From: Spirochaetia bacterium
Lineage (GTDB): Bacteria > Spirochaetota > Spirochaetia > CAKZLE01
DNA length: 64,000 nt
Assembly (NCBI GenBank): GCA_021736385.1
Contig: JAIPFY010000003.1
Coordinates: 9,828 to 73,827, forward strand
Reading direction: 5' to 3'
Part shown: piece after piece, positions 3,410 through 63,184 of the stretch
How the letters are laid out: each line of letters starts with the position of its first letter
Position numbering within the stretch: position 1 is the stretch's first letter
Program-made: the position numbers and the translations under genes
Notes under the pieces: generated by a model
Databases searched by the model: none
What the model was told of the DNA's origin: nothing
Seen by the model: only the letters and a program-made list of their open reading frames with translations

Positions 3410-4740
3410 CCAGACAGAAGAAGAGCTATTGGACCAAACTTGACAATGCAGCCCTCATATTCCCCGTCACGATCAATGCATGGGGATCGAGTTTCTTCAG
3501 GATCTCAGCCATGCTCGATGACCCTGTAGACCATATTCAGCTCCAGCAGGCTCTCGATCGCTGTATCAGCCGCTTCCCCTACTTTCATGTGAAACTCAGA
3601 CAGGGGGCGTTCTGGATGTTCCTGGAAGACTCCGACCGCAGACCCCTTGTCGATCAGGACCGGTACTACCCATGTCTTACCATCAAGACTCCCAAGCAGA
3701 GAGAGCTTCTGTTCAGGGTCCTCTATCTGGAAAACAGGGTCTCTCTGGAGATGTCCCATGTCCTGACAGACGGGTTCGGGGCTGTGGTGTTCCTGAAGAA
3801 CATCCTTGCCGAGTACCTGCGACTTCAAGGAGTGTCCATAGAGCCGGACTCGGAGTTCGATCTGTTCGATCTTGATCAGATGCCTGAAGAAGAGGAGACC
3901 GTCGATGCGTTCCACCGGTTCTATGATCATCGTGCACCGAAGGATAAGACACTTCCGATAGCATACCAGATGCGTATCAGGAACTCACCTCCCGGTGTGG
4001 ATCATATCATAACGGGGATCGTGCCGACTGCTGCGATCCTCGAGAAGACCCGGAAACACCAGGTCTCCATCACCGAGTATCTGGTATCGATCATTCTCTA
4101 TGCGCTGCAGTCCATTCAGCAGGAAGACCCGAAAGAGAACTCACCGAGACCTCTCCGCCTGAACGTACCGGCGAACCTGAGAAAGTTCTACGGTATCAGG
4201 ACCATGAAGAACTTCTCCCTGTACACGACTCCTGAGATCGATCCGAAACTCGGGGAGTTCACCTTCGAGGAGGTCCTTGAGCAGGTCCATCACTATATGA
4301 GAAAACATAACACGGAGAAGTACATCAAACAGCAGATCACCAGGAATGTCGGGGGAGAGACCAATCCATTCATCCGTGTGATCCCGTTCCCGATCAAACA
4401 GGCGTTCCTTCGCAGCATGCACGCGAAATATGGGGAGAAGCAGCAGAGTATCTGTCTTTCGAACCTCGGCAGGATCGCCCTGCCGCAGAGCATGCTCACG
4501 CATGTCACACGGTTCGACTTCATCCCTGCAGGTTCGATGCTGACCAAGACCATGCTCGCAGTCACCGGGTTCAACGATTCGCTCTATCTCTCGTTCGGCA
4601 GAGTCGCAGAGGAGCCTCTGCTCGAGAGGCGGTTCTTTGCGTTCCTTCAGCAGCAGGGCATCCCCTGTGTGCTGGAAAGCAATAACACCCCCACGTCTTC
4701 TTCACGTCCGGGATTCCTCAAAAGGCGGGGTACTTCATGA
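3406..4740 (+). CDS. CoA-dependent acyltransferase, alcohol acetyltransferase/condensation-domain-like
   Basis: Starts MTRQKKSYWTKLDNAALIFP; catalytic HxxxDG motif (SHVLTDGFG); VPANLRKFY and CLSNLGRI motifs typical of the family. Confidence 0.8.
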   Translation: MTRQKKSYWTKLDNAALIFPVTINAWGSSFFRISAMLDDPVDHIQLQQALDRCISRFPYFHVKLRQGAFWMFLEDSDRRPLVDQDRYYPCLTIKTPKQRELLFRVLYLENRVSLEMSHVLTDGFGAVVFLKNILAEYLRLQGVSIEPDSEFDLFDLDQMPEEEETVDAFHRFYDHRAPKDKTLPIAYQMRIRNSPPGVDHIITGIVPTAAILEKTRKHQVSITEYLVSIILYALQSIQQEDPKENSPRPLRLNVPANLRKFYGIRTMKNFSLYTTPEIDPKLGEFTFEEVLEQVHHYMRKHNTEKYIKQQITRNVGGETNPFIRVIPFPIKQAFLRSMHAKYGEKQQSICLSNLGRIALPQSMLTHVTRFDFIPAGSMLTKTMLAVTGFNDSLYLSFGRVAEEPLLERRFFAFLQQQGIPCVLESNNTPTSSSRPGFLKRRGTS

Positions 4741-39654: not shown

Positions 39655-42225
39655 CTATTCGACCTCTTCAGGTTCGAGAGGTTCTTCGTTCTCTGGGGTT
39701 TCGATTGTCTCATCTCCAGAGTCTGCCTGAGCAGCAGATTCAGGGACTTCAGTCCCTTCTATATCCTCGACCTCTTCGGCTTCCTCTTCGTTCTTTTCCG
39801 TACTGGCGATCGACACGACCATATCAGGGGCCTGTATATTGGAAATGATCACACCACCGGTATTCCTTCCCTGAACGGGGATCTGGGAGGCGTTGACCCT
39901 GATCGATTGACCCATCAGTGTCACACACATGAAATCATGTTCTTCAGTCAGGCTGAGTGCCCCGGCGATCTCACCGGTCTTTTCAAAGAGCCGGTAACAG
40001 ATCTGCCCCTTCGTAGCACGCGCATGAGGTGAGAAGGTATCATAATCGACCTTCTTGCCATACCCGTTCTCTGTGATGATCAGGATCTTCTCGCTCGTAT
40101 TAACCAGCAATATTCCCGCGATCTCATCGCGTGCAGAGAGCTTCATCCCAGAGACGCCTCGGGTCGCACGTCCCATCGCACGGACCATGGACTCCTTGAA
40201 TCTCAGGCCGAGACCTCTTCGAGAGATGAGCATGACTTCACTGTTCCCATCGGTCAGCAGTGCCTTGACGAGCCGGTCGCCCTCATCAAGCTTGATCGCC
40301 GCGATACCTCTGGTCTTTGCATGTTTGAACAGCGGCAGTTCAACCTTCTTCACCACTCCCTTCGAGGTACCCATGAACACATACGTCCCTTCGGTAAAAT
40401 CCTTAAAGGAGACGATCGCAGTCACATCCTCATCAGGAGAAATCGCAAGGATCGCCTTCAAGTGAGAACCCTTTGTAGTCCGTGTCCCTTCGGGCAGTTC
40501 ATACGCCTTGATCCAATAGGCTTTTCCAGCAGTGGTCACAAACATGATATGGTCATGTGTGGAGGTGATGAACAGATGTTCGACAAAGTCATTATCACGC
40601 AGCTTGGCGGCTTTCGATCCTTTACCGCCTCGTCCCTGGCTTCGGTATTCTGTCGTCGGGACACGTTTGACGAAGCCTTTGTTCGAGACCACGATCACTA
40701 CCGTTTCTTCCCTGATGAGATCTTCCATGTTCATCTCACCGACCTCATCTCTCACGATCTCCGTCTTCCTCTTGTCCCCATATCGTTCAGAGACCTCCAT
40801 GATCTCAGTTCTCACGACACCAAGGATCTTCGCATCACTGCTGAGGAGGTCCTTATAATAGATGATCATCTGCATGAGCTGCTCGAGTTCTTCTATGATT
40901 CTCTGCGTCTCAAGGCTGGTGAGCTTCTGCAGTCTCATATCAAGAATAGCCTTTGCCTGAATCTCAGAGAGTCCGAACCGTTTCCTCAGGTTCTCATTCG
41001 CCAGAGCCACACTTTCAGACTGTTTGATGATACGGATCACTTCATCCACATTATCAAGAGCGATCTTCAGACCCTCGAGGATATGGGCACGCTCTTCAGC
41101 TTTCCGAAGATCATACTGTGTCCTGCGCACAACGACATCGACCCGGTGCCGTACATAGTAGTGGATCATCTCTTTGAGTGACAGCAGTTTTGGCTGGCCT
41201 TCAACGAGGGCAAGGTTGTTTATGTTGAAGTTCGTCTCCAGAGCTGTGTGCAGGAACAGCTGGTTGATCAGAACCTTGGGAACAGCGTTGCGTCTGAGTT
41301 CGATGACCATTCGCATACCGTCTCTATCCGATTCATCCCTGAGATCGGCAATACCTTCGACACGCTTATCACGTACGAGATCTGCGATCTTCTTCAGGAG
41401 ATTCGCCTTATTGACCTGATAGGGGAGCTCTGTGACGATTATCGCATCTCTACCGGATTTCAGTGTATCAAGATGGTACCTGGCCCGAATGACGACCTTT
41501 CCCTTCCCGGTCCGGTACGCATTGCGTATACCGCTTCTTCCATGGATGATACCCTGAGTCGGGAAATCCGGGCCCTTGACGATCTCGCACAGTTCATCAA
41601 ACGTGATCTCGGGGTTATCGATATATGCAGCGATAGCAGCACAGACCTCGGTCATATTATGGGGAGCCATATTGGTAGCCATACCGACGGCGATCCCGCT
41701 TCCTCCATTGACAAGCAGATACGGGACGGATGCCGGGAGCACCAGAGGTTCCTGCATCGAATCATCGTAATTCGGTCCGTAATCGATGGTCTCTTTGTTG
41801 ATATCTTTGAGCATCTCTTCAGCGATGCGGTTCATCTTGGCTTCTGTGTATCGCATGGCTGCAGGTGGATCACCATCGACCGAACCGAAGTTACCCTGTG
41901 GATGTACCACCTGATACCGCATGGAAAAATCCTGAGCCAGACGCACCAGAGCATCATAGATCGACTGATCACCGTGGGGATGGTATTTACCGAGAACATC
42001 ACCTACGATACGTCCACACTTCTTGAATGCCTTATCATGTCTCAGCCCCATCTCATGCATCGAATACAGGATTCTCCGGTGAACAGGTTTCAGCCCGTCC
42101 CTCACATCCGGCAGCGCTCTGCTGACAATAACGGACATGGCATAATTCAGATAGGATTCTTTCATCTCATCTTCTATGGCAATTGGTATCACTCTTTGTC
42201 CAATCTCTTTTTCAATCACATTCAT
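39655..42225 (-). CDS. gyrA: DNA gyrase subunit A
   Basis: RALPDVRDGLKPVHRR, GKYHPHGD, AAMRYTE, GyrA-box QGRGGKG, beta-pinwheel repeats, acidic tail. Confidence 0.98.
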   Translation of the reverse strand: MNVIEKEIGQRVIPIAIEDEMKESYLNYAMSVIVSRALPDVRDGLKPVHRRILYSMHEMGLRHDKAFKKCGRIVGDVLGKYHPHGDQSIYDALVRLAQDFSMRYQVVHPQGNFGSVDGDPPAAMRYTEAKMNRIAEEMLKDINKETIDYGPNYDDSMQEPLVLPASVPYLLVNGGSGIAVGMATNMAPHNMTEVCAAIAAYIDNPEITFDELCEIVKGPDFPTQGIIHGRSGIRNAYRTGKGKVVIRARYHLDTLKSGRDAIIVTELPYQVNKANLLKKIADLVRDKRVEGIADLRDESDRDGMRMVIELRRNAVPKVLINQLFLHTALETNFNINNLALVEGQPKLLSLKEMIHYYVRHRVDVVVRRTQYDLRKAEERAHILEGLKIALDNVDEVIRIIKQSESVALANENLRKRFGLSEIQAKAILDMRLQKLTSLETQRIIEELEQLMQMIIYYKDLLSSDAKILGVVRTEIMEVSERYGDKRKTEIVRDEVGEMNMEDLIREETVVIVVSNKGFVKRVPTTEYRSQGRGGKGSKAAKLRDNDFVEHLFITSTHDHIMFVTTAGKAYWIKAYELPEGTRTTKGSHLKAILAISPDEDVTAIVSFKDFTEGTYVFMGTSKGVVKKVELPLFKHAKTRGIAAIKLDEGDRLVKALLTDGNSEVMLISRRGLGLRFKESMVRAMGRATRGVSGMKLSARDEIAGILLVNTSEKILIITENGYGKKVDYDTFSPHARATKGQICYRLFEKTGEIAGALSLTEEHDFMCVTLMGQSIRVNASQIPVQGRNTGGVIISNIQAPDMVVSIASTEKNEEEAEEVEDIEGTEVPESAAQADSGDETIETPENEEPLEPEEVE

Positions 42226-42240
42226 ACCCTTTATATACTA

Positions 42241-44271
<2,031 letters not shown>

Positions 44272-44469
44272 CTATATATGATTTTTTCTAGCATGTTCGT
44301 ATATTTTGTCATTTTTTTTAAAATAATCTGTCTGTCGCCATTTTTGACACTTGCCAAGATGTCGGGGATCAGGTAGTGCTCACCACAGACCCGATGCCCT
44401 TGATTATTCTTCTGATGAGAGCAAACTTATGGTGATGGATTCTTGTCATTACGTTTGCACTCCTATACA

Positions 44470-45861
44470 ATGCTGGTTATGAATGAGACCCAATATAACT
44501 ATTACGACTTCTGGAAAGAAGTACTGACACAGATCAAAATAGATCTCAACGACCAGGAGTTCACTACCTGGTTCTCCCGTATCGATTATGACTCTTCAAA
44601 AGCAGAGACCATCATCCTCGCAGTCCCTTCAAAGTTCGTCATGGATCAGATCAAGCAGCGATACAGTGCTATGATCACCAAAACGCTCCACGAGCTCTCC
44701 GGTTCCGAACTATCTATTGATTTCATCATCAAGAAGCGAGAAGCAAAGCAGGTCGTCGAAGGAGACTCCACTCCCGAGAGGCCCTCTCAGGAGCGGGCCT
44801 CCTATCATAAGAAACAGACACATCTTGAAGACAAGAGTGCGAATTACTCGTTCGATTCCTTCATCGTAGGGGATAACAGTTCATTTGCCTTCAATGCCTG
44901 CATGGCCATCGCAAAGAACCCGGGGACTGCCTATAACCCATGTCTCATCTATGGTGGTGTAGGTCTCGGGAAGACACACCTCATACAATCTGTGGGAAAA
45001 TATGTCAGTGAGAACATACCTGAGATGAAAGTCACCTATGTGACCGCTGAAGCTTTCACCAATGAGTTCATCCAGGCCATCGGGGATAAGAAGATCCAGC
45101 CATTCAAGAACAAGTACCGAAAAGTCGATATACTCCTCATTGATGATATTCATTTTCTCCAAGGTAAGGAGTCTACTCAAGAGGAGCTGTTTCACACGTT
45201 CAATGATCTGTATGATTCAAACAAACAGATGATATTCACCTGTGACCGACCGGTATCAGAACTGAAAAAACTGGCTGCACGTCTACGAAGCAGGTTCGAA
45301 AGAGGGCTGAATGTCGATCTTCAGCCTCCAAACTATGAGACTCGACTGGCTATCCTGCGGAAGAAATGTGTCGATCACAACTACGCCATCGCTGATGAGA
45401 TCCTGAGTTTTATCAGCAGGAACATCAACACCAACGTCAGAGACCTTGAGGCCTCGCTCACGAAACTCATCGCCTATTCGAAGTTGCTCAATAAAGAGGT
45501 GACCCTGAAGATCGCACAGGAACAGCTGAAGGATTCATACTCCCTGAACCGTGATCACAGCATAGCCATCGAGACGATCCAGAAGGTAGTAGCTGACTAT
45601 TTCAATCTATCCTATATCGAACTCAGAAGTAAGAAACGAACACGAGCTATCGCTGTCCCAAGACAGATAGCGATGTATATTGCCCGCAACATGACTGACT
45701 ATTCTACCACGGAGATCGGTTATGACTTTGGTGGAAGAGATCATACGACCGTGATGCATGCATGCCAGAAGATAGAGTCACTGATCCAGACCGACTCCTC
45801 CATGGATAACACCATCCAGAAACTCATGCGTGATATCAAAGAGTATAAACGGGATTCCTGA
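44470..45861 (+). CDS. dnaA: chromosomal replication initiator DnaA
   Basis: YNPCLIYGGVGLGKTHL, LLIDDIHF, RLRSRF, NVRDLE, domain IV GGRDHTTVMHA. Start 44470 or 44479. Confidence 0.98.
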   Translation: MLVMNETQYNYYDFWKEVLTQIKIDLNDQEFTTWFSRIDYDSSKAETIILAVPSKFVMDQIKQRYSAMITKTLHELSGSELSIDFIIKKREAKQVVEGDSTPERPSQERASYHKKQTHLEDKSANYSFDSFIVGDNSSFAFNACMAIAKNPGTAYNPCLIYGGVGLGKTHLIQSVGKYVSENIPEMKVTYVTAEAFTNEFIQAIGDKKIQPFKNKYRKVDILLIDDIHFLQGKESTQEELFHTFNDLYDSNKQMIFTCDRPVSELKKLAARLRSRFERGLNVDLQPPNYETRLAILRKKCVDHNYAIADEILSFISRNINTNVRDLEASLTKLIAYSKLLNKEVTLKIAQEQLKDSYSLNRDHSIAIETIQKVVADYFNLSYIELRSKKRTRAIAVPRQIAMYIARNMTDYSTTEIGYDFGGRDHTTVMHACQKIESLIQTDSSMDNTIQKLMRDIKEYKRDS

Positions 45862-45959
45862 ACATTTCACAAGCAGAACAGCAAGAGTTCTGATCTGCTT
45901 GTGAAATGACACAGGAGCCACACGGCCCTTTTTATGCAATTAATTAACTCATAACATAT

Positions 45960-46235
45960 TACTTATACCAAGTCTCAGGTTGTCCACAGGTTGTACATAT
46001 GCGAAAAATGACCTGTTCATAACTTCTTGATAACATAGGGATAACCTGTGGATTTTTATCAATTAATTGTGGATAATATGCTATAGTTGTTGATAGAGTG
46101 GATAGAATGTGGATAGAAAGACAGAGTTATGCACGTGTGGAATTCCTTTTTACCTGTTACCGGTTAACAGATTAAAAAAGTTATACACAGTGTCCACAGA
46201 CCCTATTACTACTACTATTAATATTATTATACTAA
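45960..46235. other. oriC (DnaA-box cluster, DnaA-trios, AT-rich unwinding element)
   Basis: TTGTCCACA 45980, TGTGGATTT 46047, TGTGGATAA 46068 (perfect), TGTGGATAG 46108, TTATACACA 46181 and GTGTCCACA 46190, then CTATTACTACTACTATTAATATTATTATAC, all in the dnaA-dnaN gap. Confidence 0.9.
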
Positions 46236-46253
46236 CCATAGTAAGGAGCTAGT

Positions 46254-47357
46254 ATGAAATTCACATCATCAAAAACAGCTTTGCTCAAAGCAATAATGAT
46301 CGCACAGGATATCATATCATCCAGGAACACCCTTTCGATATTATCGAATGTCCTGCTGGAAACAGCCAACAACCTGTTGACGATAAAAGCTACTGATTTG
46401 AGTGTGAGTTTCGAAACACAGATAACGGTAGATACGGTAGAGGCAGGCAGCACTACGATCTACTGTGACAAACTGCTTGGTATCCTGCGTTCACTTCCTG
46501 AGGGAGAGATAGAGATAGATCAGCTGGACTCACAGGTAGTCATACGACCACTGTTTCAAAAAATTGATTTTCATCTTCGCAGTATCAGTTCAGAGAAGTA
46601 TCCAGAGATGAAGATCTGTGATGAACAGCTTTACTTTACCGTCTCCAGCAGAGATCTCATAGCAATGATCGATCAGACTATCTTCTCAGTATCCGATGAT
46701 ACCACACGATATTTTCTCAATGGTGTCTATCTTGAGAATGGGGGGAATGGACTGGTTATGGTAGCCACCGATGGCAGAAGACTCTCGTATATGAACAGGA
46801 TCATCGAAGAGGAACTACCATCGTTCAAACCTGTCATCATCCCTCCTAAATTCCTCAATCTCATAAAAAAACTGTGTGCTCAAGATACACAGCTGGAACT
46901 GGCCATACATGATAACTTCATTTTTGCCAGATTCGATACACATAAGATATCATCCACATTGATCGATGGAAAATTTCCCAACTACCGACGGGTGGTACCG
47001 GAAAAACAGCACTTTCAGTGCATCATCGACCGCGAGATGTTCCTGGAAGCATTGAAACGAGTGTCACTCCTGGTCGAACAGAAATCAAAACGTCTGTTCA
47101 TAGAGATATCCAATGAGCATGTGAGACTCTCGTCAGAAGAGAGCGAAATCGGAAAAGCAGAAGAAGAGATTCCCTGTGAATACTACGGTGAACCTATCAC
47201 ACTGGCGATAAACTACAATTATGCACTGAACCCATTGAAGGTCATTCACGAAGAGCGAGTCAGTATCAGTTTCACTGAACCGAACAGAGCCATCACACTC
47301 GGGCCTTTCCCTGAGAAGGACTACTTTCACATCATCATGCCAATGCAGCTAGACTGA
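46254..47357 (+). CDS. dnaN: DNA polymerase III beta clamp
   Basis: ILSNVLL, ATDL, TRYFLNGV, VATDGRRL, LIDGKFPNYRRV, IIMPMQL. Confidence 0.98.
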   Translation: MKFTSSKTALLKAIMIAQDIISSRNTLSILSNVLLETANNLLTIKATDLSVSFETQITVDTVEAGSTTIYCDKLLGILRSLPEGEIEIDQLDSQVVIRPLFQKIDFHLRSISSEKYPEMKICDEQLYFTVSSRDLIAMIDQTIFSVSDDTTRYFLNGVYLENGGNGLVMVATDGRRLSYMNRIIEEELPSFKPVIIPPKFLNLIKKLCAQDTQLELAIHDNFIFARFDTHKISSTLIDGKFPNYRRVVPEKQHFQCIIDREMFLEALKRVSLLVEQKSKRLFIEISNEHVRLSSEESEIGKAEEEIPCEYYGEPITLAINYNYALNPLKVIHEERVSISFTEPNRAITLGPFPEKDYFHIIMPMQLD

Positions 47358-48448
47358 TGCTCATAGAGTCCATACAGACCTATAATTTCAGGAATCTCAC
47401 TCCTTCACTGGTTGATACCAACCATCAGCACATCACGCTCACAGGAGATAACGGGCAGGGAAAATCGAATTTGCTTGAAGCTGTATACATTATCTGCTAT
47501 GGGTCCTCCTTCAGAAGCCGGTCTCATAAACAGCTGATCCGCTTCAATGAAAAAGAGATGTCTCTCATAGCACAGATCCGTACACAGGATCGGCATCATA
47601 CGGTAAAACTGACGATTCAAGATGGAAAACGAAGGATCTACATCGATGATACGGAGATATCAGACAGGAAGGCTCTGTTCTCCATCTGTACATCCATCAT
47701 CTTTTCCCATGAGGATATGGATTTTGTTCAGGGAGCTCCGGCTGAACAGAGGCGATTCTTCGATCAGACGAACTCGCTGATCAATGAACGGTATATCGAT
47801 GACCTTCGCATGATGAACATGATCGTGAAACAGCGGAATGCCGTATTACGACAGAAAGATCACAGCATACTTGCTATTTATGACCAGAAGCTCGCAGAGG
47901 TCGGGATACAGATACAGCAGCAGCGTGAAGAGACCGTACGCTCATTCAATGAGCTGTTCCCTGACCTGTTTGAAACGGTGTCAGCTGATGGTATACATCC
48001 TGAGATCAAATATGTACCATCCTGGAAACAGGCTTCATGCGTGGAAGATGCGATACGGATCCTGCAGAATAGTCATGAGCGGGATGCGAAGTATGAGATG
48101 ACCACCACCGGTCCTCATAGAGATAAATATCAGTTTATCGAACATACACGTGATTTCATCGAGACTGCATCGACCGGACAACGAAGACTTGCAGCACTGG
48201 TGTTGAAAAGTACGCAGGCCCTGCTGTATGAACAGGCAACGGGAAACAAGCCCGTGCTGCTGCTTGATGATGTTCTGCTTGAATTGGATATCAAGAAACG
48301 AGAACGGTTCTTATCATCATTGGCCTCATACGACCAGGCTTTTTTCACCTTTTTACCTGATGAGTCCTATTTCAAGAAAGATTCCTATGATAGTATCGCC
48401 TATCACGTGGAGAGGGGATCATATAGCACTCATGAAGAAAGCTGCTGA
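47357..48448 (+). CDS. recF: DNA replication/repair protein RecF
   Basis: NFRNL, GDNGQGKSNLLEA, ERRRF-like QRRFFD, GPHRD, STGQRR, LLLDDVLLELD. Confidence 0.96.
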   Translation: MLIESIQTYNFRNLTPSLVDTNHQHITLTGDNGQGKSNLLEAVYIICYGSSFRSRSHKQLIRFNEKEMSLIAQIRTQDRHHTVKLTIQDGKRRIYIDDTEISDRKALFSICTSIIFSHEDMDFVQGAPAEQRRFFDQTNSLINERYIDDLRMMNMIVKQRNAVLRQKDHSILAIYDQKLAEVGIQIQQQREETVRSFNELFPDLFETVSADGIHPEIKYVPSWKQASCVEDAIRILQNSHERDAKYEMTTTGPHRDKYQFIEHTRDFIETASTGQRRLAALVLKSTQALLYEQATGNKPVLLLDDVLLELDIKKRERFLSSLASYDQAFFTFLPDESYFKKDSYDSIAYHVERGSYSTHEESC

Positions 48449-57331: not shown

Positions 57332-58612
57332 ATGGGATCGTATATCATTCAAGGGGGAAAACCCCTGAGCGGCGAAGTGACCGCAAGTGGTAATAAGAAT
57401 GCGGCGCTGCCGTGTATCGCAGCGACACTGCTGACCGATGAGGCTGTAGTACTGAAGAACCTTCCGGAGATCGAAGATGTGCATATCATGTTCAAGATCC
57501 TCCAGGGACTGGGATCCGAGGTGAAACGGCTGAGCCCCGGAACGTATCAGATTCAGACCGGTGATATCTCAGGCACCATAGATGAGGTACTCGCAGATCT
57601 CATACGTGCCTCGATCTTGTTCGCTGGTCCTCTGCTCGGCAGAGTCGGCAAGGTGGCCCTTGCCCCGCCGGGAGGCGATATCATAGGACTGAGACGACTT
57701 GATACACACTTTCTTGCCTTCGAAGCCCTCGGTGCAGTGTCCCAAGTCACCAATGATCGGTATATCGTCATCGAGGCAGCAACCCTTACCGGCAGCGATA
57801 TATTTCTCGACGAAGCTTCGGTGACGGCCACAGAGAACGCTGTGATGGCTGCGGTACTGGCCGGAGGGAAGACGGTCATTCGCAATGCGGCAAGTGAGCC
57901 CCACGTACAGGATCTGTGCCGGATGCTCAGCAGGATGGGAGCCGAGATCACAGGGATCGGCTCGAACCTGATCCATATTGCAGGAGTTCCCCGGCTCGGC
58001 GGCTGTGAATACACCATCGGTTCAGACTACATGGAGATCGGATCCTATATCGGACTTGCCGCAGCGACCGGAGGAGAGATCACGATACACGGGGTGCAGC
58101 TCGAACATCTGCCGATGATCCGTCTGGGATATAAGAAACTCGGTATTACCTGGGTAGAACAGGGTCAGTCACTCCATGTCCCGGCACACCAGAGCCGGGT
58201 GATCTGCACCGATGTCAGCGGGATGATGACCAAGATCGATGATGCTCCCTGGCCGGGATTCCCAGCCGACCTGCTGAGTATCATCACGGTCATAGCGACC
58301 CAGATGCAGGGGACGGTTCTCGTGCATGAGAAGATGTTCGAATCACGGATGTTCTTTGTGGACATGCTCATCAGGATGGGAGCCTTCATCGTCCTGTGCG
58401 ATCCGCATCGCGCGGTGATCTCAGGACCATCAAGACTCCATGGGGCACTGGTCACCTCTCCTGATGTGAGAGCCGGCATGGCACTGGTGATCGCCGCATT
58501 ATCTGCAGATGGGAGAAGCGAGATCCAGAACGTCTTTCAGATCGAACGCGGATATGAGGATCTCTGTGGAAAACTCCATGCCCTCGGTGCTAATATCGTA
58601 CGAAAAGACTGA
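57332..58612 (+). CDS. murA: UDP-N-acetylglucosamine 1-carboxyvinyltransferase
   Basis: SGNKNAALP, LIRASILF, PGGDIIG, ASVTATEN, PWPGFPADL, PDVRAG, IERGYE. Confidence 0.96.
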   Translation: MGSYIIQGGKPLSGEVTASGNKNAALPCIAATLLTDEAVVLKNLPEIEDVHIMFKILQGLGSEVKRLSPGTYQIQTGDISGTIDEVLADLIRASILFAGPLLGRVGKVALAPPGGDIIGLRRLDTHFLAFEALGAVSQVTNDRYIVIEAATLTGSDIFLDEASVTATENAVMAAVLAGGKTVIRNAASEPHVQDLCRMLSRMGAEITGIGSNLIHIAGVPRLGGCEYTIGSDYMEIGSYIGLAAATGGEITIHGVQLEHLPMIRLGYKKLGITWVEQGQSLHVPAHQSRVICTDVSGMMTKIDDAPWPGFPADLLSIITVIATQMQGTVLVHEKMFESRMFFVDMLIRMGAFIVLCDPHRAVISGPSRLHGALVTSPDVRAGMALVIAALSADGRSEIQNVFQIERGYEDLCGKLHALGANIVRKD

Positions 58613-58645
58613 TGGATAATGAGTTGTATCATACCAATAAGCAAG

Positions 58646-58911
58646 TTATTAAGACTCTCTTAACAAGTTATCCACAAGTTATACCATAATGGGTACGCGG
58701 TAAGTGTCCTCAATGCTGTCAAGGTTTTTACATGAAGTTTTTCTACATAATTCTGTAAGATATAATAAAGCTATATATTGTATATAAATATAAAATTCTG
58801 CTTAACGAATGTTTTTTTTGGTTCGAAAAAACGAAAAAAGTATGGGGAACAGATGAGAACTTTCAAGCTTCTGCACAAGTTATCCACAAGTTGTCCAGAA
58901 TCTGTGCAAAA
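58646..58911. promoter_or_regulatory. DnaA-box cluster outside oriC
   Basis: Perfect TTATCCACA at 58668 and 58880, each inside an AG-spaced 11-bp-period array, plus an inverted TTTTGCACA at 58903-58911. Confidence 0.75.
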
Positions 58912-58913
58912 CG

Positions 58914-59561
58914 CTATCGTTTGATGATGCGGTACCCGTAACCTCGTTCTGCAATAACAAGTTCCTCATCGTAGCTCAGCACATATCTCAGCTTCTTTCT
59001 CAACTTCGAGATGGACATATCAAGGCTTCTGCTGCCTGCATCGTTCAGATTCGGCAGGCACTCGAGCAGCAGTTCCCGTTCGATGGGAAAGGGGGAAGCT
59101 CCTACCAGATATTTCAGAATGAGGTATTCGGTATAGGTTATGGAGACAGAGTTCTCATCGGTGATGACACGATCTTCAGAAAACCGGAACGAACGATCCC
59201 CGCTATAGGTGAACCGCTGCAGTGTCTGCCTGATGATCCTGCAGGCGAGCTCCTCACCTGCAAACGGGTAGATGATGAAGTCCTTCACCCCATAGGCAAG
59301 GGATGCTCGTATATGCTCTACCGGACCGAAGGCCATGATCGGATAGGTGTGTTCTATCAGCCGCTTCTGAGGGATCTCAAGCAGACTCCTGCTTGGTAAT
59401 AGATAGGCATCATACAATGGCTGCGGCCTGAAGGTATCAAAGAATATGGGTTTGATCTCTTCAAAGGCTGTGAGAGCCTCAGCGATCTGCCGCTTCTCCT
59501 CATCATCGGCGAAACAGAAATTCACGATCAGACGCGCTTGTGATGAACATAGATCTTTCAT
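58914..59561 (-). CDS. OmpR-type winged-helix protein with degenerate (pseudo) receiver domain
   Basis: C-terminal ITYTEYLILKYL...SRSLDMSISKLRKKL...ERGYGYRI; receiver-like N-terminus lacks the phospho-Asp and the Lys of KPF (IIYPF). Confidence 0.85.
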   Translation of the reverse strand: MKDLCSSQARLIVNFCFADDEEKRQIAEALTAFEEIKPIFFDTFRPQPLYDAYLLPSRSLLEIPQKRLIEHTYPIMAFGPVEHIRASLAYGVKDFIIYPFAGEELACRIIRQTLQRFTYSGDRSFRFSEDRVITDENSVSITYTEYLILKYLVGASPFPIERELLLECLPNLNDAGSRSLDMSISKLRKKLRYVLSYDEELVIAERGYGYRIIKR

Positions 59562-59570
59562 GGTATATCC

Positions 59571-60689
59571 TTACATATGGAGTGTTGCGGGCATATAGAG
59601 ATCATCGAACGTTCGGGTGGTAAGGGATATGATCCTGTCATGTGGAGAGCATATCACGCAGCGGGACAGAAAGGAAAACAATTCTCTCACATTTCCCGGC
59701 CACTTCTGTCTCTGTATGAGCTCGATGGTGGATGGAGAGAGGGAGTATTCTTCATGGTATTTGGTAAAGTAATATGATGCGAGTTCGGGGATATCCTCAA
59801 GATGCTCTCTCAGCGGGGGGATACATATGACCAGAGAGTTGATCCGGTAATAGAGATCATCCCGGAACCGTTTGTGCTGTATATCTGAGAGCAGCTGTCT
59901 GTTCGTGGCGCAGACGAACCTGACATCCACACTTCTCTGGGTCGTATCACCCAACCGATAGTAGGTCTTCTCCTCGAGGACTTTCAGCAGCTTCGGCTGC
60001 TGCTGTAACGGGATGTCACCGATCTCATCAAGGAAGAGGGTCCCCTTCTGTGCAGCGGGCAGAAAGCCTATCTTATCCTGCAGAGCACCGGTAAAGGAGC
60101 CCTTTGCATGACCGAACAACTCTGATTCGAACAGGCTGTGACTCAACGTAGAACAGTTGAGCTCGACATACCTCCCGGTTCTGGAGGAGATGGTGTGGAT
60201 CGCCTGTGCGGCAATGTTCTTACCGGTCCCGGTCTCTCCTAGCATCAGTACCGGTTCGTCCGCAGCCGCATAGGTGGCAATTTTCGATCTGACCGCGCGC
60301 ATCATGGCAGAATTCCCGGCGAGCGGTATGGTCCGGGCGATACGCTGGTGCTCATCGGGGATCTCAGATCGCTCTTCCAACAGATGCATGAAGATCGACT
60401 GGATGATCTGAGTCCTCTCACAACCCGCGATACAGACTGTCTGTATCCTGTTGTGGTGGCACTTCTGATGGGACATGACCAGACCTTTGAACTTGCGGAA
60501 TGCAAGGTCATTGAAATACCCACTATGATCATGGTCATTGCTTGAGAGGATGATCACGTCACTGTTCTTATGTTCGGTAGCCAGAAGGACTCTCTCCCAG
60601 ATGCGTTCCTGTTGTATGGAAAAACTCTGTATGGCATACAGGTAACTGAACAGACGCTGATCCTTTCCAAAGCAAATGATGTCAATCAT
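59571..60689 (-). CDS. sigma-54 interaction-domain (bEBP-like) AAA+ protein without C-terminal HTH
   Basis: GETGTGKN, ESELFGHAKGSFTGA, FLDEIGD, FRDDLYYRI, WPGNVREL, then a stop about 35 aa later; AAGGA RBS before ATG 60689. Confidence 0.9.
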   Translation of the reverse strand: MIDIICFGKDQRLFSYLYAIQSFSIQQERIWERVLLATEHKNSDVIILSSNDHDHSGYFNDLAFRKFKGLVMSHQKCHHNRIQTVCIAGCERTQIIQSIFMHLLEERSEIPDEHQRIARTIPLAGNSAMMRAVRSKIATYAAADEPVLMLGETGTGKNIAAQAIHTISSRTGRYVELNCSTLSHSLFESELFGHAKGSFTGALQDKIGFLPAAQKGTLFLDEIGDIPLQQQPKLLKVLEEKTYYRLGDTTQRSVDVRFVCATNRQLLSDIQHKRFRDDLYYRINSLVICIPPLREHLEDIPELASYYFTKYHEEYSLSPSTIELIQRQKWPGNVRELFSFLSRCVICSPHDRIISLTTRTFDDLYMPATLHM

Positions 60690-60892
60690 GTGAATTCCTT
60701 TATCGTATGGCAAGTATCACTCTCAGGTCATGATTTGTAAATAGTCCAGTCGGTGTAGGGATTAATATGGACATCTCTGTGTGGTGCTGAAGAGGTGTGT
60801 ACTGTTTTATCGGTATAGATCTGAAGCTATTGATGGATATATGAACAAATCTTTATTGCAACTAATCACTCTACATTATAGAATATGTTCCT

Positions 60893-63184
60893 ATGAAAAA
60901 GATAATACTAGCCACCTGTATATTATGTGTAGTTTCACTCTGTGTGTTATCGGCTCAAACATTTGAGACCGATGGGCTTGCTCTACAGGCAGTACCGTCA
61001 CAGACCGAGGGCTCTATCAGTTCCGTAGAGAGAGGGTTCCTGAGGCTGGGGCTGCAGGAGACTGCCGGTCTCAAGCAGTTCGGGTACGATATGCTGAACG
61101 CCATGGTACCGAGTCGCTCATCCATCGTGAACGATGACTATGTACTGGGACCAGGGGATGATCTGAGGATCTATCTCTGGGGGGATTCCGTTGATTTTGG
61201 TACCCTGAAAGGGTACTACGAAGCGACTGTCGACCTTGATGGCGGACTGTATATAACCCCTGCCGGACGGCTTGCCGCCTACGGGCGTACGATCAAAGAT
61301 GTCAACAGGACGCTCACTGAGATCCTGAACTTCAAGTACAGCAATATCACCGTCGAGGTAGCTCCTGCCAGGATACGCGACTTTCCGGTCTATGTGAGCG
61401 GGTTCGTCAAGAATCCCGGGACCGTATCGGTCAACGGGCTGTGGTCTGTTGCTGATGTCCTCGGGGTCTCCGGTGGGATCGTCCCTGAAGGGTCCTTGAG
61501 GGATATACAAGTATGGAGAGGCGGTGAGCAGATAGCCATCGATCTCTATGATCTGTTCATCAGGGGGATCCCGGTGAGTCTCACCATGCAGGAGGGCGAT
61601 GTGATCTACGTCCCGCCTGTCTCAAAGTCTGTTGCGATCACTGGACAGGTCAAGCGGGAAGGGATCTATGAGATGACTAGAGGCGAGACTGTGGGGGATC
61701 TGCTGACCTATGCCGGGGGCCTGCAGGTAGCAGGTGCTGCATATACCGTGCGGATCGTCACACAGGACGGCACCAGTGTCATGGTCTCTGAGGCTTCGTC
61801 GAACATCCAGGATATCACCAGCAGGATCGTGCATGATGGGGATCTGATCCTCCTTACCCCGAGCAACGTCTTCTCGTCGAATATCGTTGAAGTTGCCGGA
61901 GCGGTGCATTATCCCGGAATCTACAATGTAGAGAAGACTCCGATGCTATCGGGGCTCATCGAGCGGGTAGAACTTCGTTATGATGCTGATATGGCCTTCG
62001 GGACGATCTTCCGTGATGATTCACGAGACGAGGATTCGGGTATCGTCTTCTCTCCCGGAGAGATCGCGGCAGGGACTGCGGATGTTGAACTGCTTCCCAA
62101 CGATGTCATCCAGTTCTATACGGTCGAGCGGACCTACACTCAGGATCCGATACGGGTGACAGGGTTGGTAGAACGACCTGAGGTGATCAGCTATGAGCAG
62201 GGGATGATGCTTCTGGATCTTCTGCAGCATGTGACCTTCACCCGGGACATCTCGACTCTCCAGCTGCGCCTCATACGGGATCAGGAGGTCCTTGAGCAGA
62301 TCTATCTGCGTGATCTGCTGATCAAGGGTGATACCAGCAAGAATATCAGCTTACGTCCGGGGGACATGGCAGCAGTGGTGGAGAACGAGGATTCAGAGAA
62401 CCTCAAAGGGGTCAGAGTGCTCGGACAAGTCACGAGGCCCGGTGTCTACTCCTTTGAAGGGGATCTTCACCTCTCCGATGTACTCACTGCGGCCGGGGGC
62501 TATGCGGAACAGGCCTATCCTCAGGCACTCTATCTGATCAGGGAGTCCGTCAAGACCCGGCAGCTCGAACAGCTGAAGAAGACTATAACGGTCACCGCAA
62601 GTGAGCTCAATGCATTGGAGGCGTCGGTCGCGGTTAAGACCGATCTCTCCTCTGCAGAGAAGAACATCATCGCTGCCCAGATCGAACAGCAGCGTTCTCT
62701 GCTTGAGTCAGCAGCAGAGAACCAGGGAGAGACCCTGGGTCGAATCGCCCTGAACATCCCTGCAACGATCGAGTCCCTCAAAGGGAGCACTGCTGACATC
62801 CTTCTGAGTGAGGGTGATCATATCTATATACCCGAACGTTCTGAGTATGTGACGATCATCGGGGATATCGACTCTACGATCGCTCTGCCCTATGAGAAGA
62901 ACAAGAAGGTCAAAGACTACCTGTTCGAACTCGGAGGTCTGCGGTCGAAGGATTATACGATCTCGATCATGAAGTATAACGGGAAGGTGGTGAAAGAAGA
63001 TAACCTCTTCTTTGGTTGGAGTACGATCGAGGGACAGACCCTTGCCCCCGGCGATGTGATCATCGCTGTGAAGAAGATCTCCATACCGGCCGGGACCCAA
63101 CTGGTGGAAGGGCTGACACAGGTCACTGACTCCGTCTACAAAGTGGTCTACTCACTCAATGCGCTTGATTTCTTCGGGAACTGA
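60893..63184 (+). CDS. SLBB-domain polysaccharide export protein (Wza/KpsD-like)
   Basis: Signal peptide, FGYDM, YVLGPGDDL Poly_export motif, repeated V.V.G.V..PG SLBB units, L.PGD motifs. Confidence 0.88.
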   Translation: MKKIILATCILCVVSLCVLSAQTFETDGLALQAVPSQTEGSISSVERGFLRLGLQETAGLKQFGYDMLNAMVPSRSSIVNDDYVLGPGDDLRIYLWGDSVDFGTLKGYYEATVDLDGGLYITPAGRLAAYGRTIKDVNRTLTEILNFKYSNITVEVAPARIRDFPVYVSGFVKNPGTVSVNGLWSVADVLGVSGGIVPEGSLRDIQVWRGGEQIAIDLYDLFIRGIPVSLTMQEGDVIYVPPVSKSVAITGQVKREGIYEMTRGETVGDLLTYAGGLQVAGAAYTVRIVTQDGTSVMVSEASSNIQDITSRIVHDGDLILLTPSNVFSSNIVEVAGAVHYPGIYNVEKTPMLSGLIERVELRYDADMAFGTIFRDDSRDEDSGIVFSPGEIAAGTADVELLPNDVIQFYTVERTYTQDPIRVTGLVERPEVISYEQGMMLLDLLQHVTFTRDISTLQLRLIRDQEVLEQIYLRDLLIKGDTSKNISLRPGDMAAVVENEDSENLKGVRVLGQVTRPGVYSFEGDLHLSDVLTAAGGYAEQAYPQALYLIRESVKTRQLEQLKKTITVTASELNALEASVAVKTDLSSAEKNIIAAQIEQQRSLLESAAENQGETLGRIALNIPATIESLKGSTADILLSEGDHIYIPERSEYVTIIGDIDSTIALPYEKNKKVKDYLFELGGLRSKDYTISIMKYNGKVVKEDNLFFGWSTIEGQTLAPGDVIIAVKKISIPAGTQLVEGLTQVTDSVYKVVYSLNALDFFGN

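Follow-up and report, generated by a model that had tools for sequence, protein, structure and literature searches.

The enhancer-binding proteins of bacteria (bEBPs) are textbook single-chain activators that sense a signal, hydrolyse ATP and bind an enhancer, the few of them devoid of a DNA-binding domain (DBD) being thought to act from solution. The locus dealt with here comes from a freshwater spirochaete (contig JAIPFY010000003.1, positions 9,828 to 73,827; this whole stretch of 64,000 nucleotides is referred to as the window) and contains two open reading frames (ORFs) on the minus strand, one for a sigma-54-type AAA+ activator lacking the helix-turn-helix (HTH) domain and the other, immediately downstream, for an atypical response-regulator-like protein ending with a winged helix-turn-helix (wHTH). 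The question raised by this arrangement is whether the second protein may provide the DNA binding that the first one lacks, or whether the two are just neighbours. The domain anatomy of both proteins, the lack of the HTH throughout the clade, the tight linkage of the two genes, their co-inheritance and the translocation of the pair as a unit are established in the comparisons described below, and, as far as can be judged from sequences, the two genes appear to be transcribed together and to encode a regulatory module of two proteins that is conserved in Spirochaetota. The pair, evaluated with the help of AlphaFold2 (AF2) models among others, consists of the following elements:

59571..60689, minus strand: HTH-less sigma-54-type AAA+ activator, 372 aa counted from the ATG (Pfam, NCBIfam, alignment, AF2, Foldseek)
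60219..60239, minus strand: Walker A motif GETGTGK of the activator, aa 151-157 (orthologue alignment)
60084..60101, minus strand: L1 loop of the activator, GSFTGA at aa 197-202, a variant form of the GAFTGA motif that contacts sigma-54 (alignment)
59562..59570, minus strand: 9-nt intercistronic spacer, GGATATACC (sequence)
58914..59561, minus strand: atypical OmpR/PhoB-type protein, 215 aa, a pseudo-receiver followed by an intact winged helix at aa 137-212 (Pfam, AF2, Foldseek, alignment)

The activator begins with a degenerate receiver-like N-terminal domain (aa 1-106), from which a linker helix leads to the AAA+ core and the lid, the last two being recognized by Pfam as Sigma54_activat (PF00158; aa 124-288, 3e-60) and AAA_lid_14 (PF25601; aa 294-353). 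It exhibits the features of the NtrC-class AAA+ proteins: besides the lid, it has GETGTGK as Walker A, LFLDEIG as Walker B and an L1 loop of the GAFTGA type. The Walker motifs, intact here as had been read in the initial annotation made from the sequence, are invariant across the orthologue alignment. The GSFTGA variant of the loop is present also in the Desulfovibrio enhancer-binding proteins with mapped regulons (PMC4641369). The C-terminal Fis-type HTH of bEBPs (HTH_8) was not found by Pfam, the tail extending for 35 aa beyond the segment WPGNVREL, in accordance with the length originally reported. With regard to NCBIfam, the protein can be aligned only to the central domain of NifA, RtcR, NorR, NtrC etc., remaining far under every equivalog cut-off. 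The TTG at 60713 is an upstream alternative candidate for the start codon, an unlikely one because the orthologues begin at the position equivalent to the ATG.

In the AF2 model of the activator (pLDDT, i.e. predicted local distance difference test, 91), the N-terminal domain (1-106) is (beta-alpha)5-like with a short hairpin in place of alpha4, and it is followed by linker helices and the AAA+ domain. Foldseek aligned the full-length protein (~385 columns) to structures combining a receiver (REC) with AAA+, namely NtrC1 (1NY5), NtrC4 (3DZD), FleQ (8P53), LuxO and VpsR. Both the model and the structural matches thus give the architecture receiver plus sigma-54 AAA+ without a C-terminal HTH, which is that of FlgR from Helicobacter, CtcC from Chlamydia and FleT from Rhodobacter (PMC3162934). 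FlgR and CtcC, however, possess phosphorylatable receivers and cognate kinases. In the activator of the window the receiver is degenerate: according to the orthologue alignment, neither an Asp closing beta3 (the absence of the phospho-Asp having been noticed before) nor an acidic pair following beta1 nor a Lys-Pro following beta5 is conserved, and alpha4 is missing. Moreover, there is no histidine kinase among the annotated neighbours between 39.6 and 64 kb of the window, which extends the earlier observation made for the adjacent genes. The second difference from FlgR and CtcC is the wHTH gene closely coupled downstream.

The loss of the HTH is a feature of the whole clade and not a local truncation. 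The full-length orthologues of the activator (P0002, P0003 and P0005-7; 334-387 aa) are all HTH-less and ~30 further homologues all end 21-56 aa past WPGNVREL, their loop following the consensus G[AS][FY]T[GDN][AS]; in these ~30 diverged HTH-less homologues, the loop contacting sigma-54 is under selection, and so are the motifs of the ATPase. It should be pointed out that an HTH would be detectable if it were present in the clade, because the conventional bEBP encoded in the related locus L145 carries the expected HTH tail. Orthologues with a normal HTH were named in the initial annotation as the finding that would speak against its proposal; every orthologue turned out to be HTH-less. The same alignments, together with the comparison of four assemblies, refute the explanation by an artefact or a decaying pseudogene, i.e. 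by a truncated bEBP lying beside a degenerate response regulator, to which practically no credence can be given. Nothing favours it beyond the missing domains, whereas one architecture is common to all the homologues, which are 38-50% identical and have kept their catalytic motifs intact, and the AF2 models are confident. In addition, the contigs from four runs (three metagenome studies) spanning 58600-60900 differ from the window by 1 to 63 substitutions, the single indel among these independent assemblies being intergenic, at 60832. They contain no frameshift, a check for truncation at the stop codon at 59571 having been advised earlier.

Concerning the partner protein, Pfam identified just the OmpR/PhoB winged helix (Trans_reg_C, PF00486; aa 137-212, 3.9e-10), with no match to Response_reg. 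Its AF2 model (pLDDT 87.5) contains a REC-like domain without alpha2, plus the wHTH, and Foldseek matched it best to OmpR/PhoB regulators over their full length, among them the atypical phosphorylation-independent RitR, HP1043, GlnR and CosR; the fold matches the OmpR-family DNA-binding domains at a template-modelling (TM) score of 0.7-0.76. The intact wHTH claimed originally is therefore confirmed by both the Pfam domain and the fold, and its recognition region (SRSLDMxISKLRKK, RGxGYR) belongs to the best-conserved parts of the protein. As for the receiver, in which the Asp, the Thr/Ser and the Lys had all been considered lost, the phospho-acceptor pocket is indeed not intact: in comparison with the canonical receivers, Tyr/Phe stands in the place of the Lys and the Thr has disappeared by a 3-residue deletion. 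The claim needs a correction, however, as to the Asp, since the close subfamily has an invariant one (D51), shifted by one residue to the N-terminal side of the canonical phospho-Asp column; this D51 is not conserved across the wider family. The partner thus has the REC-wHTH fold and a degenerate pocket in common with the atypical OmpR-type regulators HP1043/HsrA, RitR, GlnR, CosR and ChxR. In contrast to these stand-alone sigma-70-type regulators, the partner family lacks also the helix alpha2, and no case of operon coupling of HP1043/HsrA, RitR, GlnR, CosR or ChxR to a sigma-54 AAA+ protein was found in the literature.

The two genes are in the same reading frame and lie 9 nt apart, as was seen from the beginning, the activator ending with the TAA at 59573-59571 and the partner starting with the ATG at 59561. 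An AGGA Shine-Dalgarno-like sequence overlaps the activator stop codon, which is consistent with co-translation of both genes, and a sigma-70-like promoter of the pair is found on the minus strand (TTTACA 60741..GATACT 60713). From 5.8 billion proteins, the profile of the partner retrieved no more than nine close clusters, a set of 1.84 billion yielding 7 representatives at E<=1e-30. Among the close members located on contigs long enough to show the neighbours (P0122, from a 1.25-kb contig, was left out), the partner gene directly follows an HTH-less Sigma54_activat gene in every case, with gaps from -4 to +12 bp, and the co-occurrence in other genomes, suggested earlier as a check, is thereby documented.

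The adjacency is kept in many Spirochaetota, in two unrelated genomic contexts. In context A, the order is rsmE and the SLBB exporter gene, divergent from the AAA+-wHTH pair, then an element with DnaA boxes and then the convergent murA; besides the window, it covers the loci L001-3, L005, L006, L012 and L013, as well as the more diverged copies L024, L030, L031, L036, L043, L046, L072, L080 and L095. In context B (L004, L008-11), the pair is followed by genes for a nitroreductase, an ArfB-like RF-1 and BipA. The neighbour-joining trees of the AAA+ and wHTH proteins agree with each other, both placing context B within context A, so that the context-B sub-clade has moved as a two-gene unit. Two details of individual loci may be added. 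In the complete Spirochaetia chromosome OY782041.1 (L046, 347-2140), a gene for an insertion-sequence-type DDE transposase is located upstream of the pair, in the place occupied by the SLBB exporter gene in the other context-A loci. Upstream of the context-B pair in L010 (4745-4775), there are two perfect tandem copies of GGGATTTCCCGTAA; this repeat is not conserved in L004 or L008 and could be a candidate binding site of the regulator.

A second line of evidence comes from the more distant relatives of the partner, which bear the motif DYLK[ED]PW, likewise without the canonical Lys. Their paralogous wHTH family comprises 159 matches in representative genomes, nearly all from Spirochaetota. 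In the 80 loci of this family, the wHTH gene directly follows pspA in 70 and a STAS gene is found upstream in 73, an HTH-less sigma-54 activator being encoded ~2 kb upstream on the same strand in at least 35 (the count is bounded by the 3.5-kb flank). The activators of these PspA clusters have 362-385 aa and GAFTDA or GSYTGA loops, and in the one from L160 the Response_reg domain is a genuine one. The linkage of HTH-less sigma-54 ATPases with pseudo-receiver wHTH proteins is thus seen in two different architectures, which represents the strongest argument for their working together. The pair of the window is not itself a Psp module, no pspA or STAS gene being present between or beside its two genes.

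The reading preferred here, to which we assign a probability of about 0.45, is that of a functional pair, in which the activator and the wHTH protein would work together, the latter supplying the DBD-less ATPase with DNA targeting, i.e. site-specific anchoring, or with gating at a sigma-54 promoter elsewhere in the genome, and the input signal would come from a ligand or protein contact and not from phosphotransfer. That the wHTH protein supplies the DNA binding in trans is plausible. A more specific version is somewhat unlikely, namely a two-subunit phosphorylation-independent enhancer-binding activator, with the OmpR-type pseudo-response regulator replacing the Fis-type HTH, docking on the ATPase and delivering it to enhancers, and with the same solution reused in the PspA/STAS envelope-stress module. 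The individual parts are ordinary; it is their persistent pairing across Spirochaetota that is new, and no description of this pair was found in the literature. If the preferred reading is true, the lineage-wide pairing of a sigma-54 ATPase devoid of a DBD with a wHTH pseudo-response regulator dedicated to it would mean a new route to promoter specificity, in which DNA is targeted in trans by a different fold, and a new role for the aspartate-less receivers as protein-protein adaptors. The pair also offers an entry into the sigma-54 and Psp-like regulation of free-living spirochaetes, which are almost unstudied.

A precedent for an activator in need of a separate DNA-binding protein exists in spirochaetes, since the sigma-54 activation by the Rrp2-RpoN system of Borrelia is enhancer-independent and requires BosR, which binds near the -24/-12 promoter (PMC3037356). 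Rrp2 differs, however, by having retained both the HTH and a phosphorylatable receiver, BosR being a homologue of Fur/PerR. To our knowledge, there is no operon link between BosR and rrp2.

The partner could also be a modulator of the ATPase, i.e. an anti-activator or adaptor comparable with PspA for PspF, HrpV for HrpS, FleN for FleQ and NifL for NifA, steering the hexamer assembly via the pseudo-receivers and binding DNA for another purpose, e.g. autoregulation or sequestration. Such a role, considered improbable, would agree with both receivers being non-phosphorylatable, which calls for some protein or ligand input, with the wHTH paralogues encoded beside PspA, the classic bEBP anti-activator, and with FleQ and VpsR, i.e. 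atypical receivers under protein or ligand control, being the top structural matches of the activator; the conserved recognition region of the wHTH argues, on the other hand, for DNA binding as central to the function of the partner. The likeness to FleQ-FleN and VpsR consists in the non-phosphorylated receiver-like N-terminal domain, FleQ and VpsR being controlled by a partner protein or a ligand, controlling exopolysaccharide and flagella and being associated with polysaccharide loci; these two keep, however, their own HTH, and the partner FleN is an ATPase and not a DNA-binding protein. PspF, too, is governed by a partner protein, PspA, instead of phosphorylation, and in many Spirochaetota the wHTH paralogues stand directly after pspA near an HTH-less bEBP; PspF differs in having an HTH and no N-terminal domain, and the pair studied here in being without pspA or STAS.

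Several points weigh against the functional pair. First, the N-terminal domain of the activator has no alpha4 and the partner no alpha2 in the AF2 models, so that the usual receiver dimer interface may not exist; with regard to the missing alpha4 of the activator, the canonical alpha4-beta5-alpha5 heterodimer is doubtful, and the heterodimerization of the two pseudo-receivers proposed in the initial annotation is not borne out. Second, a sister clade (L017, L019, L021, L054, L061, L063, L064, L098 and L101) has retained an HTH-less activator in the corresponding position, with rsmE on one side and the DnaA-box element on the other, but lacks a wHTH gene there; these activators, exemplified by L021 5750-6919 from the Sphaerochaetaceae chromosome OY781923.1, have GAYTDA loops and LFLDEIE as Walker B, and the wHTH partner is thus not obligatory. 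Third, there is no AAA+-wHTH fusion protein among the best 150 of the 24,520 relatives; calling the system 'split', as was done previously, is therefore a misnomer, the wHTH being of the OmpR type and not the missing Fis-type HTH.

The fourth point concerns the promoters, starting with those upstream of the pair:

60690..60892, no strand assigned: divergent intergenic region with the promoters for the pair and for the SLBB gene, no -24/-12 (promoter inspection, conservation)

The SLBB gene is preceded by a sigma-70-like promoter (TTGCAA 60856-60861, N17, TAGAAT 60879-60884), conserved among the relatives as TTG(C/A)AA-N17-TATAsAAT. Its -10 hexamer stops 8 nt before the ATG (window 60856-60895), and the SLBB mRNA should therefore be leaderless or nearly so. 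The SLBB polysaccharide-export gene had been put forward as a possible sigma-54 target; in view of this conserved promoter it was rejected as such, and the neighbouring exporter gene is probably not the target, the accompanying remark that 60690-60892 has no convincing -24/-12 being correct. A pattern search of the 64-kb window for TGGCAC-N5-TTGC at <=1 mismatch gave no match, and the 34 matches obtained at up to 2 mismatches are below the chance expectation. A weighted GG/GC scan for sigma-54 promoters in the window and ~180 related loci (~1.3 Mb) revealed nothing positionally conserved near any copy, and within the 64-kb window neither an RpoN box nor rpoN was found. The sigma-54 target would thus be located elsewhere in the genome. 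The STAS-pspA-wHTH operons, too, have TTGACA at a promoter-like distance in 66 of the 69 loci, and the promoters read directly in four of these loci are of the TTGACA-N17-TATAAT type, i.e. sigma-70-type. Because of the partner-less sister clade, the absence of alpha4 and alpha2 and the lack of a promoter found, caution is advised.

Some of these observations suit independent action of the two proteins, in which the ATPase would activate the sigma-54 promoter(s) from solution like FlgR and CtcC, and the wHTH protein would be a sigma-70-type atypical orphan regulator like HP1043, GlnR and ChxR, merely co-expressed, e.g. as a part of the same physiological programme or as a regulator of its own operon. 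The DBD-less bEBPs do work without enhancer binding (PMC3162934), the sister clade shows that the ATPase can stand alone, the promoters beside all the wHTH genes look sigma-70-type, and autonomous atypical regulators are found among the nearest structural matches of the partner. Independent action is nevertheless regarded as somewhat unlikely: the two genes are linked very tightly, often with an overlap, they have changed their context together, and in the paralogous PspA-linked family an association with HTH-less activators is found once more, independently.

It is worth mentioning that the gene cluster around the paralogues may be of interest in itself. At L108 305-4106 (Marispirochaeta, OY763414.1) and in ~70 more loci (L103-L181), it comprises, in this order, the genes for the HTH-less sigma-54 AAA+ activator, a divergent 158-aa ORF, STAS, (a CesT-like protein), PspA/IM30, the pseudo-receiver wHTH protein and an LptF/G-like permease. 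The cluster gives the impression of a Psp-type envelope-stress module not described so far, the promoter of its operon being sigma-70-like; the surveys of the PSP systems record pspA co-located with HTH genes in Spirochaetota without describing such a system (PMC9239133, PMC11237479). In four of the loci (L116, L117, L121 and L155; ~3943-4006, minus strand), a -24/-12-like GGTACG-N4-TTGCT occurs right after the wHTH stop codon, in antisense orientation, its recurrence being probably due to descent because the loci originate from closely related genomes.

The remaining element of the locus lies between the convergent murA and wHTH genes:

58613..58913, no strand assigned: conserved ~300-bp AT-rich element with two flanking DnaA boxes (conservation)

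It contains two identical extended DnaA boxes, ACAAGTTATCCACAAGTT, at 58664-58681 and 58876-58893, i.e. 212 bp apart, with an AT-rich core between them, and both the box sequence and the spacing (210-212 bp) are kept in relatives whose proteins are only ~32-45% identical. The conserved inner motifs are TGTCAAGR and TTCTCCYTAACG. The element contains no conserved small ORF, and no known RNA was matched in Rfam. The motif GTCAAG, common to this element and some of the STAS upstream regions, was dropped from consideration, being present in 19 of the 69 loci only.

The position of the element suggests yet another explanation, according to which the wHTH protein would bind there, as CtrA, MtrA and HP1021 do at oriC, and the module would govern replication or the availability of DnaA instead of sigma-54 transcription. 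The binding of OmpR-type regulators at replication origins is established, and all the context-A loci have an extended DnaA box, with repeats phased at 11 bp, at a distance of 20-40 bp from the end of the wHTH gene. The two-box pattern is, however, present in 88 GTDB representative genomes, including those from other phyla; in most spirochaetes it is found beside the murA 3' end, in ~10 loci its neighbour is dnaA or dnaN, and a few other phyla have it within obvious DnaA-box clusters. Many spirochaetes have the element without any wHTH gene, and one metagenome-assembled genome with the context-B pair has it on another contig, beside murA (L037), on which basis it appears to be DnaA-related and not a dedicated site of the wHTH protein. 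The 11-bp-phased ACAAGTTATCCACAAGTT repeats were consequently rejected as a specific wHTH site. Since the conserved sigma-54 contact loop of the activator speaks against it as well, the origin-related explanation is very unlikely. The element may represent a cluster of DnaA boxes or something like a secondary origin, adjoining the module without being considered a part of its mechanism.

As far as the origin neighbourhood itself is concerned, it is found in the window at 39655-48448, where gyrA and gyrB occupy the minus strand and, in divergent orientation, dnaA, dnaN and recF the plus strand (the latter three at 44.4-48.4 kb). The spacer between dnaA and dnaN contains DnaA-box-like sites (45980-46189), and the GC content between 44 and 50 kb is low (0.40-0.46). 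The cumulative GC skew has its minimum at ~47.7 kb, which places the two-box element to the right of the origin defined by the skew, at a distance of ~11 kb.

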